From an uncultured Acidobacteriaceae bacterium (lineage in GTDB: Bacteria; Acidobacteriota; Terriglobia; Terriglobales; Acidobacteriaceae), in the NCBI GenBank assembly GCA_963732305.1, contig CAVSYW010000002.1, forward strand, positions 860,694 to 924,693: a stretch of DNA of 64,000 bases. Reading direction: 5' to 3'. The position numbers and the translations under genes were made by a program. The notes beneath the pieces were generated by a model that was not told the DNA's origin, made no database searches, and was given only the letters and a program-made list of their open reading frames with translations. Shown here in pieces: positions 41,228 through 46,112 of the stretch (within the stretch, counting starts at the first letter, position 1; the number at the start of each line of letters is the position of its first letter).

Positions 41228-42019
41228 ATGGCGAAAGCAAGCGTGGCGGGCAAAGTCCGGGGTTTTGAGCGCGGAGTGCGGGCGGCGCTTCGCCAGATGA
41301 AGGATGCCGAGCGGGCCGCGGGGATGCGCGCCTATATGCGCGGCCGTTTCGAGTACCTGGGTGTGGGAACGCCGGAACGTCGGGCTGCGGTCGCGCCGCT
41401 GATGCGCGCATTCAAGCCGGCGAGTGCGGAAGAGCTGCGCGAGGCGGCCGAGGGTTTGTGGGCGATGCGCGAGCGCGAGTATCAATATGTAGCGGCGGAC
41501 CTGCTGATTCGGTATCAAAGTGCGTTGAGCACAGACGATCTCCCCTGGCTGATCGAGTTGGCGCAGCAGAAGTCATGGTGGGACACGGTGGACTGCCTGG
41601 TGAAAGTCGTGGGCAAGATTGTGCGCCGGGCGGAACATGAAGGAAATGGAGCGAAGGGCGTGCGCGCGATGGAGCGGGCGGTGAAGCACGAGGACTTCTG
41701 GGTGCGGCGGATCGCGATGCTGCACCAACTGGGCTGGCGCGGCGAAGTTGACACGGAGCGGCTCTTCCGTTTTGCCGAACTGCTGGCGGCCGAGAAGGAA
41801 TTGTTTATTCGCAAAGCGATCGGGTGGGCGCTGCGCGATTACGCTTGGCATGACTGGCGGGCGGTGGAGAAGTTCCTTAAGACGACCGAGGGGAAGTTTT
41901 CGGGGCTTACGGTGCGCGAAGCTAGCAAGAATTTTGCTGCGCTTAGAGCGCGGCCGCTTGGCCTGCGGGGGTCTGGAGACCCCCGCGACAGCCGGTCTAG
42001 AGACCGGCGTTACAACTAA
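41228..42019 (+). CDS. DNA alkylation repair protein (AlkD-like HEAT-repeat glycosylase family)
   Basis: REYQY, WWDTVD, FWVRRIAMLHQL, LFIRKAIGWALRDYA; C-terminus reads through a REP element. Confidence 0.9.
   Translation: MAKASVAGKVRGFERGVRAALRQMKDAERAAGMRAYMRGRFEYLGVGTPERRAAVAPLMRAFKPASAEELREAAEGLWAMREREYQYVAADLLIRYQSALSTDDLPWLIELAQQKSWWDTVDCLVKVVGKIVRRAEHEGNGAKGVRAMERAVKHEDFWVRRIAMLHQLGWRGEVDTERLFRFAELLAAEKELFIRKAIGWALRDYAWHDWRAVEKFLKTTEGKFSGLTVREASKNFAALRARPLGLRGSGDPRDSRSRDRRYN
41965..42012. repeat. Double-hairpin REP-like family B
   Basis: GCGGGGGTC-TGGA-GACCCCCGC-gaca-GCCGGTC-TAGA-GACCGGC-gttac; relatives at 32272, 48477, 50396, 56726. Confidence 0.75.
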
Positions 42020-43182
42020 TCTTTGTTGCTCTCGGCCCACCATCTTGCGAACGAGGCGAGGGTTGTTCCTGGCGAGTTTTCGGTCGCGTAGCGTTGGAGC
42101 TCTCGATCCGTCGTCTCTTTTTCTGCTTTCATTTGGTTGCGAACTTCGGATGCAAGCCCGGCACCGGCGCTTTCAGGGAAATCGGGGAATTGCGTGTGAA
42201 GGCGGGGGATAGAATCTGCGTCGGGCTCGATCGCGAGTTGATTGACTGCCGCGCGGATGCGCTCGATCGTGCCGCTGACTTCGAGGTCGGGGTCGGCGAG
42301 AATTTGCTCGGCGAGGCTCCTGATGCGCTGCCGCTGCATATCGTGTCCAAGGCGGTGGGCGGCCAATCCGGCAGCGATCGGCAGGTTGCCTTCGTAGCTG
42401 CCGTCGTCATAAAGAGCGGCCTGGAGAAAGATCACGGGGGATTTGGGATCCTCCATGCAGGTTCCATTGGCGGCGGTTCCGGAGTTATCCGAGACGGTGA
42501 GCTGGCCGGTTGCGCCGGGCGCGATGCGCGCCAAGGTTTCCTCGGACCAACCCGACTCCCCGTCGGTGCTGCTGCCGACCCGGTACGCGACGACGGTCTT
42601 TGCGGAGAGATTGTGCACCGTGAGAGTGCCGGTGATGCGATCGCGGGTCGCGTAGTCGTCAAGATTAACCGAGAGTGCGTTGCTGTGCAGGGCCGGCTGG
42701 TTGGCCGTAGCAGGTTGCGGAGTGACGATGCGGAATGTGATGGGCTCGAGGCCGAAGCGCTGCAACTCGGGGAATGTGACCTCTTCGTTGAGCTTTACGG
42801 AATGCGTGGCGAAGGTTTCGTGCGGGATGTCTTCCACTGAGCCGGTTGCCTTGGCGGTATCGAAGTCGCCGTAAAGCACCGTTGCGACGATCGAGACGGT
42901 GTCTCCGCTGGTCTTCAATTCCAGGCGCAACGCGGAAGGCTCGCGAATGCCGGGATCGGGATTGGGCAGATGGCGGAGGCTTGCAGAGCGAAACAGGGCG
43001 ACGCCGGTGGGGGTGGTGAGAGTGAAGTCCTGAGGGCATCCGTTGGCGTCAGGAAATTCCAGGGCAAGCGGGCTGGCCGGGGCCGGGAGCGCTCTTGGAA
43101 TTTGCGGCGATGCGACGCCGGGCACGAGGCAGGCCAGCAGGCAGGCAGAAAAAAGTACGCGATGCGCGATTTTGGCGAGCAT
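42016..43182 (-). CDS. Exported hypothetical protein (~388 aa)
   Basis: Signal peptide MLAKIAHRVLFSACLLACLVPGVA; beta-rich then helical; no family recognised. Confidence 0.75.
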   Translation of the reverse strand: MLAKIAHRVLFSACLLACLVPGVASPQIPRALPAPASPLALEFPDANGCPQDFTLTTPTGVALFRSASLRHLPNPDPGIREPSALRLELKTSGDTVSIVATVLYGDFDTAKATGSVEDIPHETFATHSVKLNEEVTFPELQRFGLEPITFRIVTPQPATANQPALHSNALSVNLDDYATRDRITGTLTVHNLSAKTVVAYRVGSSTDGESGWSEETLARIAPGATGQLTVSDNSGTAANGTCMEDPKSPVIFLQAALYDDGSYEGNLPIAAGLAAHRLGHDMQRQRIRSLAEQILADPDLEVSGTIERIRAAVNQLAIEPDADSIPRLHTQFPDFPESAGAGLASEVRNQMKAEKETTDRELQRYATENSPGTTLASFARWWAESNKD

Positions 43183-43227
43183 AGTTGGCACTCATTATAG
43201 GCTCGCTTGGTTTGGGGTCAAGTGCGC

Positions 43228-43291
43228 GGTGCGTGAGGCGAGCAAGAATTTTAGGGCGCTGGGCCAAGTCGGGAATGGCGTCCGCGCTTGA
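43228..43291 (+). pseudogene. Duplicated 3' end of the AlkD-like gene (VREASKNFRALGQVGNGVRA*)
   Basis: 27/33 nt match to 41911-41943, same reading frame content. Confidence 0.65.
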
Positions 43292-43317
43292 CTTTCGACC
43301 GGGACTGGCCGTAGTTT
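43288..43317 (+). promoter_or_regulatory. sigma70-like promoter
   Basis: TTGACT-N18-TAGTTT. Confidence 0.55.
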
Positions 43318-43323
43318 GTCTTT

Positions 43324-43550
43324 ACACGGGAAAGGAGGATGATCCAGCCTATGAGCAAAGATTCTTCGAGATGTACTGTACGTGAGGTGACTGAGGCCTA
43401 GGGCATCGCGCCCCTGACCCCAGGTAAGTCCAGACGGAGGATTCTCCGCCATGGCTCTGGCTTTCGCGGCAGCGCGATGGCCTTAGTCCAATCCCAACAG
43501 ATCACCGGCAGCGGCCTGGGGACGTGAGTTCCCGGGCCGTTGTTGTTTTA
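43324..43550 (+). ncRNA. Candidate small structured transcript carrying a 16-aa sORF (MSKDSSRCTVREVTEA, 43351-43401)
   Basis: Promoter, AAAGGAGG SD, long-range pairing 43386-43506, intrinsic terminator; family not recognised. Confidence 0.45.
43509..43550 (+). terminator. Intrinsic terminator
   Basis: 15-bp stem CAGCGGCCTGGGGAC-gtga-GTTCCCGGGCCGTTG followed by TTGTTTTT. Confidence 0.75.
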
Positions 43551-43554
43551 AAAA

Positions 43555-43615
43555 CAGGGAATAGGGAACAAGAAGTCAGGGAGCAAGGGAGCGAGGGAAC
43601 AAGGGAACGAGAAAA
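43555..43615. repeat. 7/8-nt purine-rich tandem repeats (CAGGGAA / CAAGGGAA)
   Basis: Direct reading; sister array at 44212-44292. Confidence 0.8.
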
Positions 43616-43662
43616 CCGGGGCGCAGGGATCTGAAAAGCAGGAAACTGCTGAGAGGTGGAGG

Positions 43663-44208
43663 ATGGGACACGAGCTTGATAACACGATTGCGTTGTTGGA
43701 GCGGACGCCGGCAGCGCTCAATGCGCTGCTGCGCGGATTGCCGGAGTTTTGGACGGAGAGGAACGAGGGCGGGGATACCTGGAGCGTGAGCACAGCGATC
43801 GCGCACCTGATTCATTGCGAGGATGAGGATTGGATGCCGCGGGCGCGGCATATTCTGCGTGCGGGTGACAGTGAGCCTTTCGCGCCTCTCGACCGCGAGG
43901 GGCACGTGCGCTTTGGCCGCGGCAAAACGCTGGCGCAACTGCTCGATGAATTTACGCGAGCGCGGACGAAGAGCCTGGACGAACTGCGCGGACTGAAATT
44001 GACGCCGCAGGATCCGGGGCGGAGGGGACGGCATCCGGCCCTCGGCTCGGTTACGTTGTCTGAGCTGCTGGCCACCTGGGCGGCACACGATTTGACGCAC
44101 TTGCACCAGATTTCGCGGATCATGGCGCACCAGATGCGCGAGGCCGTGGGACCATGGGTGCGATTCCTGGGAGTGATGCAGTGCGCGGGACACAGCGAAG
44201 CGGGGTAA
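43663..44208 (+). CDS. DinB/YfiT-like family protein
   Basis: WSVSTAIAHL, HPALGSVTLSELLATWAAHDLTHLHQI metal-binding His pattern. Confidence 0.88.
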   Translation: MGHELDNTIALLERTPAALNALLRGLPEFWTERNEGGDTWSVSTAIAHLIHCEDEDWMPRARHILRAGDSEPFAPLDREGHVRFGRGKTLAQLLDEFTRARTKSLDELRGLKLTPQDPGRRGRHPALGSVTLSELLATWAAHDLTHLHQISRIMAHQMREAVGPWVRFLGVMQCAGHSEAG

Positions 44209-44812: not shown

Positions 44813-45826
44813 ATGTCAGAGAAGAAAACACATAAGGTAACGCTGATTCCCGGCGACGGCATTGGGCCGGAAGTTACGCAGGCTGTGGTGCGCATTCTTG
44901 AGGCGACCGGCGCGAAGTTTGAGTGGGAGCGGTTTGCTGCCGGGGCCGAGGCCTTCGAGATTCACGGCGAGTACATTCCCGTGGCGCTGTACGAGTCGAT
45001 CGAACGCAATCGCGTGGCGCTGAAGGGGCCGGTTACGACGCCCATCGGCGGCGGGTTCAAGAGCATCAACGTTACGCTGCGCAAGAAGTTCGATCTCTTC
45101 GCCAACCTGCGGCCTATCCGCAATCTGCCCGGCCTCGATACCAAGTATCCCGGCGTGGACCTGGTGATTGTGCGCGAGAATACCGAGGGCGAGTACGTGG
45201 GCCTGGAGCACGAGGTGGTTCCGGGGGTGGTGGAAAGCATCAAGGTGATTACGGAAAAGGGATCGACGCGCATCGCGCGGTTTGCGTTTGAATATGCGCG
45301 CAAGCACGGGCGCAAGAAGATCCACTCGATTCACAAAGCCAACATTATGAAGCTGTCGGACGGGCTGTTTTTGCGCTGCGCGCGGAAGGTGGCTGAGGAG
45401 TTTCCCGAGATCACGTATGGCGAGCACCTGATCGACAACACCTGCATGCAACTGGTGATGAATCCCTTCCAGTACGACACGCTGTTGCTTGAGAATCTCT
45501 ATGGCGATATTGTGAGCGACTTGTGCGCGGGTCTTGTGGGCGGGTTGGGACTGGCACCGGGCGCGAACCTGGGCGTAGACTGCGCCATTTTTGAGGCGGT
45601 GCACGGGTCGGCGCCGGACATTGCGGGCAAAGATGTGGCCAATCCCACGGCGCTGCTGCAGTCGGCGATTCTGATGCTGCGGTATCTGGACGAGGAGGCC
45701 GCGGCCGATAAGGCGCAGAAGGCGCTGGAAGCAGTGTACGCAGAGCGCCGGACATTGACGCGCGACGTGGGCGGGACGGCGGGAACTACGCAGTTTACTG
45801 AGGCGATGCTGGCGAAAATTGCGTAA
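44813..45826 (+). CDS. icd: NAD-dependent isocitrate dehydrogenase (isocitrate/isopropylmalate dehydrogenase family)
   Basis: IPGDGIGPE, LRKKFDLFANLRP, RENTEGEY, HKANIMK, NLYGDIVSD, EAVHGSAPDIAG. Confidence 0.85.
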   Translation: MSEKKTHKVTLIPGDGIGPEVTQAVVRILEATGAKFEWERFAAGAEAFEIHGEYIPVALYESIERNRVALKGPVTTPIGGGFKSINVTLRKKFDLFANLRPIRNLPGLDTKYPGVDLVIVRENTEGEYVGLEHEVVPGVVESIKVITEKGSTRIARFAFEYARKHGRKKIHSIHKANIMKLSDGLFLRCARKVAEEFPEITYGEHLIDNTCMQLVMNPFQYDTLLLENLYGDIVSDLCAGLVGGLGLAPGANLGVDCAIFEAVHGSAPDIAGKDVANPTALLQSAILMLRYLDEEAAADKAQKALEAVYAERRTLTRDVGGTAGTTQFTEAMLAKIA

Positions 45827-46014: not shown

Positions 46015-46112
46015 CCGTCCCTACGGGACTCCGCAGCCAATCTCTGGAATCCGCTTTCCCCACGCTGAAGCGCGGGGCTAACAAACATCGCGCCTCCGGC
46101 GCGCTCGCGACA
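46015..46112. repeat. REP/MITE-like palindromic element between convergent genes
   Basis: gtccc-tac-gggac and ccccacgc-tgaa-gcgcgggg-cta hairpins. Confidence 0.55.

Follow-up and report, generated by a model that had tools for sequence, protein, structure and literature searches.

Results

The window analysed here is a 64,000-nt stretch of DNA from an uncultured member of the Acidobacteriaceae. An earlier note on this DNA, made by reading the sequence alone, had described a stand-alone transcription unit of about 225 nt upstream of dinB, nrdR, and icd. This description was borne out by our analysis, as a promoter, a Shine–Dalgarno (SD) sequence, a 16-codon open reading frame (ORF), a folded 3' domain, and a terminator are all present in 42900–43900. 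The features are collected in Table 1. The TTGAC of the −35 hexamer and the TA of the −10 hexamer are kept, with constant spacing, in 35 relatives and in distant families as well. It was missed by a consensus scanner because the −10 hexamer is weak. Sequence conservation starts at TACAC, 6–7 nt past the −10 hexamer, and the transcript ends given in Table 1 are those predicted from the promoter and the terminator. The plus strand has a predicted folding energy of −97.1 kcal/mol, with z = −3.2 relative to shuffled sequences, and all 15 pairs of the terminator stem show compensatory changes. A protein-coding gene on the minus strand (ORF 43195–43452) was considered and rejected, as it is contradicted by the indel pattern and by strand-specific covariation. 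ARAGORN found no tRNA or tmRNA in 43000–43800.

Table 1. Features of the RNA gene, with positions numbered in the window.
Feature	Position	Strand	Description
Sigma-70-type promoter	43288-43317	+	-35 TTGACT (43288-43293), 18-nt spacer, -10 TAGTTT (43312-43317)
Predicted transcript	43324-43549	+	about 226 nt; starts at conserved ACAC, ends in the terminator U-tract
Helix P0', 5' strand CACG	43325-43328	+	pairs with CGUG 43381-43384
Extended SD GAAAGGAGG-A-UGAUCC	43330-43345	+	complement of the 16S 3' tail GGAUCACCUCCUUUCU over 15 nt, one base bulged
SD AAAGGAGG	43331-43338	+	
Short ORF	43351-43401	+	16 codons and TAG (43399-43401); encodes MSKDSSRCTVREVTEA
Second SD-like hexamer GAGGUG	43384-43389	+	always 9 nt before the stop codon
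Helix P1a, 5' strand GGUG	43386-43389	+	pairs with CACC 43503-43506, before the terminator
Helix P1, 5' strand	43390-43398	+	last three sense codons, ACUGAGGCC; pairs with 43479-43487
Hairpin A	43401-43413	+	foot includes the stop codon; 4 of 4 pairs changed on both sides, 98.6% of cells paired
Central variable domain PB1/PB2	43419-43460	+	12 of 12 counted pairs with compensatory changes
Hairpin C (UCGCG-GCAG-CGCGA)	43464-43477	+	4 of 5 pairs changed on both sides at order level
Single-stranded stretch CCAAUCCCAACAGAU	43488-43502	+	between P1 and P1a; nearly invariant in the order
Intrinsic terminator	43509-43549	+	15-bp stem (43509-43542), GUGA loop, U-tract

Comparison by BLAST and analysis of covariation in the Acidobacteria had been proposed as a check on the unit, and both conservation and covarying helices were found. 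The RNA gene is present in one copy in 35 of the 37 genomes of the genus, with 72–93% identity by BLAST, and the matches of a pattern scan carry the labels Terracidiphilus, Occallatibacter savannae, and Acidobacteriaceae MAGs. A covariance model built from 109 genus sequences, R1, gave full-length matches (positions 1–232), mostly single copy, in 265 of 301 genomes (about 88%) and in 53 of 60 genera of the order Terriglobales, including the sister family. A second model, R2, which covers only the 5' half of the RNA, gave clear matches, with E values of 1e-8 to 1e-15, in 23 genomes of seven further families of Acidobacteriota (f20, f32, f34, f43, f64, f74, and f80 in our numbering). The unit is far above chance, a single-copy element kept across hundreds of genomes. 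Our literature search found no published description of the acidobacterial RNA.

The earlier note had remarked that the unit is not explained by its flanking genes, and indeed the neighbors change between clades. The nrdR gene is downstream in only about 8–13 of the 35 genus loci, and it directly follows the RNA in the closest relatives. The neighbors in other clades are ruvC, thiG, rpmE (which follows the RNA in two genomes of another family), an integrase, a convergent NUDIX gene, and a metallo-β-lactamase-fold gene. Analysis of synteny across clades showed no universal neighbor, and some of the downstream genes are on the opposite strand.

The terminator has been swapped in 13 loci, right after CACCG, for a different hairpin (CCCCGC...GCGGGG). 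A tyrosine integrase or an integrase fragment is located about 100 nt downstream in 7 of these 13 loci, compared with none of the 172 other loci. The placement of the integrases shows that mobile elements use the 3' end of the gene as an attachment site, just as with tRNA and tmRNA genes, and so treat it like a gene for a stable RNA. The terminator is thus generic and interchangeable. One genome still carries the original 3' end as a displaced copy, 42 kb away.

These observations bear on the suggestion that the unit is a leader acting in cis, a ribosome-dependent attenuator that in the window would control dinB-nrdR-icd. The layout does resemble a leader peptide followed by a terminator, and the position of nrdR immediately after the RNA in the closest relatives, as well as that of rpmE in the two genomes of the other family, is what such a leader would show. 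However, an attenuator would be expected to precede the same regulated gene throughout and to switch between terminator and antiterminator pairings that exclude each other. Here, the downstream gene is not constant between clades and there is no conserved antiterminator alternative, while the sequence of the terminator is free to vary and has been replaced wholesale by the terminators of mobile elements. Furthermore, in the window about 110 nt and a separate SD precede dinB. Because the neighboring genes differ between clades, the RNA does not appear to be a leader for dinB-nrdR-icd, and we consider a cis-acting leader very unlikely.

The strong SD and the 16-residue ORF of the earlier note were found as described. 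The 3' end of 16S rRNA was taken from the same genome, and its predicted duplex with the extended SD has an energy of −26.7 kcal/mol, compared with −12.7 kcal/mol for an ordinary SD of 6 nt. Aside from the antisense of the rRNA gene, the genome has no second site like it. In the window, the 16S complement consists of 9 + 6 nt split by one bulge, and the ATG is 12 nt past GGAGG. In most other genera, and in other families, the complement is contiguous, GGAAAGGAGGUGGUCC, with 15–16 nt including one G·U pair, and GUG or AUG is found 7 nt past GGAGG. A further helix is found in most genera, where GGUCC, the 3' part of the SD, pairs with a GGAC just upstream and the SD core is left as a bulge; this helix is absent from the window's own genus.

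An SD of this kind is known from rreB of Bradyrhizobium, whose 165-nt mRNA combines a 17-nt SD with a GTG-initiated ORF of 14 codons (Hahn et al. 2017, RNA Biol 14:1353, PMC5711450). The rreB mRNA binds the 30S subunit tightly and sediments with it, is weakly translated, and is stabilized by removal of the start codon (PMC5711450). Given the 1-nt bulge and the start codon 12 nt past GGAGG in the window's genus, 30S docking there may be weaker than in rreB.

Loci with an SD followed by GAGGUG were collected in a search that required the hexamer and left the triplet 9 nt later free. This triplet is a stop codon in 247 of the 248 loci, with TAG in 203, TGA in 33, and TAA in 11. The hexamer is invariant in our alignments A2, A4, and A6. 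Among the distinct copies, 206 of 207 have ATG, GTG, or TTG 4–14 nt past the SD, in frame with the stop and with no other stop codon in the frame. The length of the ORF ranges from 11 to 22 codons across loci; in the genus it is 15–16 codons, with a few up to 20, and the indels are in multiples of three. Within the genus, TAG, TGA, and TAA alternate at one site. Stops at a fixed site that use all three codons, together with the in-frame starts, would be hard to explain if the ORF were not decoded. Thus, the ORF appears to be decoded.

The earlier note had also considered a readthrough element. The SD-like element on the 5' side and the hairpin on the 3' side of the stop codon resemble the recoding sites of prfB and dnaX, which have an SD-like element upstream and a hairpin downstream, and in the window the zero frame is open for 48 codons beyond the TAG. 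Readthrough or frameshifting stimulated by these two elements is nevertheless extremely unlikely. TAG, TGA, and TAA all serve at the same site, and there is no slippery sequence. Furthermore, beyond the stop the indels are of any length and do not keep to multiples of three, and this region covaries as RNA helices.

Covariation at the level of the order supports a four-way junction of P1, hairpin A, the PB1/PB2 variable arm, and hairpin C, with the terminator after it. In the order-level alignment, 88% of the cells are paired, and 41 of 55 pairs have changed on both sides. The covariation score is 0.395, compared with 0.144 for shuffles and ≤0.09 for slid partners. This order-level alignment was fitted to the model, and the pair counts of A3 and A5, both fitted in this way, lean towards it; alignment A6 was built with MAFFT without any structure.

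On the structure-free alignment, helix P0' is paired in 100% of the cells. Its fourth pair is CG in 17 sequences, GC in 14, UA in 7, and AU in 1, while the second pair is AU in 36, GC in 2, and GU in 1. In its family form, CACN at the 5' end of the transcript pairs with NGUG just before AGGUG. As a result of this pairing, the residue before E-V in the peptide is R, G, S, or C. In P1a, 96.8% of the cells are paired, and the sole variation is C to U opposite G, giving a wobble pair, in 8 of 39 sequences; covariation supports P1a weakly because the helix is nearly invariant. The 3' strand of P1 varies in the genus only in such a way that wobble keeps the pairing, and the order-level comparison adds compensatory changes, such as the 7 sequences in which G:C has become A:U. 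The pairings of P0', P1a, and P1 bring the 5' end of the RNA, the end of the ORF, and the 3' end together in one hub, with the stop codon paired in the hairpin that comes next.

The earlier note had the UAG sitting in a bulge, but the family as a whole has the stop codon paired at the foot of hairpin A, where a change of stop codon is matched by a change in its partners: UAG..CUA, UAA..UUA, and UGA..UC. The nested pairings that it had listed were retained in part: GGTGA/TCACC is seen as GGUG:CACC, CTGAGGC/GCCTTAG is P1, and CGGAG/CTCCG is also supported by the comparison, but CATCGCG/CGCGATG did not hold up. This long-range pairing exists in the sequence, but it is broken in two relatives (L008 and L025), and the local hairpins A and C covary instead. 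An additional helix from RNAalifold, P0 (GGGA 43328–43331 with UCCC 43492–43495), was rejected, since two of its four pairs are open in 23 and 13 of the 39 sequences. The length of the central domain varies from about 20 to about 250 nt, with a structured expansion of about 150 nt in one sub-clade.

The single-stranded stretch on the 3' side is recognizable as AAUNCCARCAG in other families and in the consensus of Ms_IGR-5, a small RNA family that is described below. No convincing 12-mer complement of this stretch was found in its own genome as a target in trans, and with RNAduplex the stretch paired with the rRNA operon no better than shuffled motifs did.

What, then, has been conserved in the ORF? 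In the sequences compared, conservation extends to the start, the frame, and the stop but not to most of the peptide. Across the phylum, E-V is all that the peptides have in common, and E-V is simply the hexamer GAGGUG read as codons. In the genus, the variation in codons 4 (D/E), 6 (S), and 7 (S) is mainly in the third position. Since D4, S6, and S7 look constrained in the genus, the peptide may matter after all. By contrast, the six C-terminal codons (REVTEA) have no synonymous change among 35 independently found genus copies, and the constraint there is therefore on the RNA.

The RNA could on this evidence be the mRNA of a functional micro-protein of 15–20 residues, rich in Ser, Cys, and Asp and with an EV-x-E-x end, for which the folded RNA would be only a stabilizing 3' UTR. 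The conserved start, frame, and stop, the third-position variation of codons 4, 6, and 7, and a C-x-x-C motif that is present in many copies are in line with this, and the RreB and RreR peptides are likewise conserved within their own clades (PMC5711450). However, across the phylum the peptides are alike only in E-V. The residue before E also tracks the base required by helix P0', the unchanged REVTEA codons point to the RNA, and the 3' domain and the CA-rich single-stranded stretch are better conserved than the peptide. We consider this reading unlikely.

At the other extreme, the RNA could be noncoding, acting as a riboregulator or sponge to titrate either the 16S tail on 30S subunits or a GGA/CA-motif-binding protein, and its reading frame would be tolerated but irrelevant. 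The extreme 16S complement, unique in the genome, would suit a sponge, as would the conserved single-stranded motif in the 3' region, and rreB sediments with 30S subunits while being barely translated (PMC5711450). However, an irrelevant frame would not be expected to keep its stop in all but one locus with all three codons in use, or its in-frame start in all but one distinct copy despite the variation in ORF length. In addition, overproduction of rreB does not slow growth, which argues against simple titration of ribosomes (PMC5711450), and the 12-mer search gave no good complementary target of the 3' motif in the rRNA operon or the genome. A purely noncoding role is quite unlikely in our judgment.

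The window copy was compared with Rfam, and it has no match at the locus, either at the gathering thresholds or at E values up to 10. The candidates 6S, SRP, Acido-1, and Acido-Lenti-1 are included in this result; 6S and SRP are found elsewhere in the genome, and the sole Rfam match in the window is Acido-Lenti-1 at 46058–46103. The earlier note had held that a strong match to a known Rfam family would count against its reading. The window copy gives none, but copies in other acidobacterial families do pass the cut-off of RF02471, Ms_IGR-5.

The gathering cut-off is 45 bits for RF02471 and 75 bits for RF01867, CC2171. The distant acidobacterial copies that exceed the RF02471 cut-off, with scores of 67.7, 50.6, and 47.3 bits, are from families f34, f64, and f74. 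The scores grade down from these other families to the sister family (up to 47 bits, with one genome passing) and then to the genus, where homologous sites have 12–17 bits. The cmscan alignment of one copy (L240) to the RF02471 consensus has the shared order ACAC...GGAAGGAGGUGGUCC...GGAC-N-GUGAGGUG...UAG...AAU.CC..CAG.CACC. Furthermore, the loci matched by RF02471 are also reached by R1 and R2, both derived from the window's clade. Since the window copy is below every Rfam model, its membership in Ms_IGR-5 is by transitive homology through the intermediates.

CC2171 gave sub-threshold matches over its full length, with 20–34 bits, at acidobacterial loci, and only an unrelated 14-bit match in the window's own genome. 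One mark of the rre RNAs, a contiguous 16S complement of at least 16 nt that runs into the start codon, is lacking in the window copy. The rre RNAs are also short stand-alone transcripts with a conserved ORF of about 14–25 codons and a variable genomic context, and in these respects the window copy appears to be alike. The likeness to rre/CC2171 is mostly in the SD, which is dictated by 16S rRNA, and common descent is therefore unproven.

Discussion

The locus is probably an independent gene for a "ribosome-docking" mRNA or small RNA, an acidobacterial form of Ms_IGR-5 that is built like rre/CC2171. From the sequence comparisons, its kinship is best filed as Ms_IGR-5 by graded, transitive homology, with rre/CC2171 as functionally analogous and possibly homologous. 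Among the proposals of the earlier note, that of a small RNA or dual-function RNA stands: the unit is a stand-alone small RNA with a short ORF that is apparently decoded, and "dual-function RNA" or "small mRNA" is a fair name for it.

How might such an RNA work? In the proposed mechanism, the 30S subunit would dock tightly on the exposed SD. The ribosome that translates the 11–22 codons would then have to melt the whole hub. With the stop codon in the A site, GAGGUG would be 6 nt from the P-site codon, which is the spacing of an initiation complex. Judging from this geometry only, the anti-SD of the ribosome at the stop could re-pair with GAGGUG. If translation melts the hub, then the fold of the RNA, its lifetime, and any activity of the 3' stretch in trans would be set by the engagement of ribosomes. 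Such a fate of the RNA would correspond to the "ribosome-regulated expression" reported for rreB (PMC5711450).

A broader proposal can also be made, though we think it rather unlikely. Ms_IGR-5, the acidobacterial RNA, and rre/CC2171 might be one ancient class of mini-mRNA that crosses phyla, in which a ribosome is caught by a nearly complete complement of the 16S tail, melts the hub while translating about a dozen codons, and is re-anchored at a second SD located exactly 9 nt before a stop within a hairpin. The class would then be a sensor or parking device for translating ribosomes.

If these ideas are correct, the RNA would be a housekeeping-type riboregulator of translation status that has been overlooked because gene callers and Rfam thresholds miss it. 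The design of rreB/rreR, CC2171, and Ms_IGR-5 has been visible in transcriptomes for more than 10 years, and it is now shown across the Acidobacteriota. Since the acidobacterial copies grade into an actinobacterial Rfam family, this appears to be a widespread and strongly conserved gene rather than an alphaproteobacterial curiosity. There is also a gap in annotation, since current Rfam thresholds miss the whole Terriglobales clade. Testable mechanics are offered by the hub, by the SD-like site whose distance to the paired stop is constant, and by the 3' motif, and in these mechanics the engagement of ribosomes may control the RNA or the RNA may report on ribosomes. In the papers on Ms_IGR-5 and rre/CC2171 consulted here, we found no description of the covarying hub that joins both RNA ends to the end of the ORF, of an SD-like site lying a constant distance ahead of a paired stop, of the conserved 3' stretch, or of integrases that target the 3' end of the gene.

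Among known systems, tmRNA (ssrA) likewise is structured, conserved, and present in one copy, has a short internal frame that ends in a helix, and offers its 3' end to integrase islands as an attachment site. However, tmRNA has a tRNA-like domain and a tag frame that lacks a start codon, whereas the acidobacterial RNA does not have such a domain and brings its own SD and start codon (ATG). The dual-function and attenuator-derived small RNAs SgrS/SgrT, RNAIII/delta-hemolysin, SR1/SR1P, and rnTrpL/peTrpL are also short transcripts that combine a translated short ORF with a conserved structured or single-stranded RNA part. In the acidobacterial RNA, by contrast, the ORF and the core helices overlap and are not side by side, and there is no sequence relationship with these RNAs.

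The rre/CC2171 RNAs, of which CC2171 has been confirmed by Northern blot in Methylorubrum, share several features with the acidobacterial RNA. Both are stand-alone transcripts of about 160–230 nt with an RpoD-type promoter and a terminator, with an SD extended to 15–17 nt of 16S complement and an ORF of 14–18 codons, often with a GTG start. In both, conservation of the peptide stops at the limits of a clade, and the neighboring genes vary. They differ in that the GAGGUG hub is not visible in the CC2171 consensus. Furthermore, rre RNAs have been described only in Alphaproteobacteria, and the 30S binding, weak translation, and start-codon-dependent decay are data for rreB, whereas the acidobacterial RNA is known here from its sequence.

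The closest likeness by homology is to Ms_IGR-5, an actinobacterial small RNA that was first reported in Mycobacterium smegmatis. Its homologs have ribosome-protected reads in M. abscessus and M. smegmatis (PMC4974804), and it has been seen in Streptomyces RNA-seq (PMC8079986). The 3' domain in the Terriglobales differs from that of Ms_IGR-5 in being a larger four-way junction with a variable arm, and in the window's genus the SD complement has the 1-nt bulge and the start codon has moved downstream. The two RNAs nevertheless share the order of their conserved blocks, the stop 9 nt past GUGAGGUG at the foot of a hairpin, the CACC, and the terminator.

Variation within the RNA

The central domain of the RNA, its variable arm, carries an insertion of about 150 nt at loci L033–L036, L041, L044, L059, L063, L081 and L138, all of which belong to one sub-clade of the genus. 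Hairpins inside this insertion covary, as in the examples GCGAC..GUCGC, which becomes GCGGC..GCCGC, and CCCGGC-UU-GCCGGG, which becomes CCGCUU-AAGCGG. The insertion is a structured expansion segment and not a coding sequence. The sORF frame itself is broken in one of the 148 copies of the genus (L136), by a 1-nt deletion that is either a sequencing error or the mark of a decayed copy.

In copies of the type found at loci L207–L218 (genera g14, g21 and others), P1, the helix that involves the last three sense codons, contains the heptamer CCACCUC, a perfect anti-SD-like sequence, in its 3′ strand. This heptamer could form 7 bp with GAGGUGG in place of the P1 register, which is weaker, with three G·U pairs; a conformational switch between the two pairings is possible in these copies. 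The genus of the window lacks this possible switch.

Integration at the 3′ end

The 3′ end of the RNA gene, immediately behind CACCG, is the insertion site of a family of tyrosine-integrase integrative elements (loci L020, L142, L052, L082, L095 and L106). The terminator CCCCGC-AUAAAC-GCGGGG is brought in by the element. The complete genome G007 still has the original 3′ end, displaced by about 42 kb, a distance that points to an island of roughly that size.

Neighboring genes

In the window, a gene without a Pfam match, on the strand opposite to the RNA, separates the AlkD-like gene from the promoter of the RNA and has a near-consensus promoter of its own (TTGACC-16-TATAAT). In three relatives (L003, L007 and L010), the end of the AlkD-like gene abuts the promoter of the RNA. 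Downstream in the window, an Acido-Lenti-1 RNA follows the isocitrate/isopropylmalate dehydrogenase-family gene. In two genomes of f5, another family of the same class, rpmE (ribosomal protein bL31, with translation starting MKAGIHP..Y) is located about 40–60 nt downstream of the RNA (L252 and L253). The adjacency could have arisen by chance in this lineage, or it could hint at a connection with ribosome biology.

Coordinates of neighboring features and of the interrupted locus in G007
Feature	Position	Strand	Remark
391-aa gene	window 42016–43221	−	
Promoter of 391-aa gene	window 43221–43194		
Dehydrogenase-family gene	window 44813–45826		Pfam Iso_dh
Acido-Lenti-1 RNA	window 46058–46103	+	Rfam RF01687; 42.3 bits, cut-off 37
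L020	G007:C1, around 4516812–4517008		
Displaced 3′ end	G007:C1, 4474594–4474649
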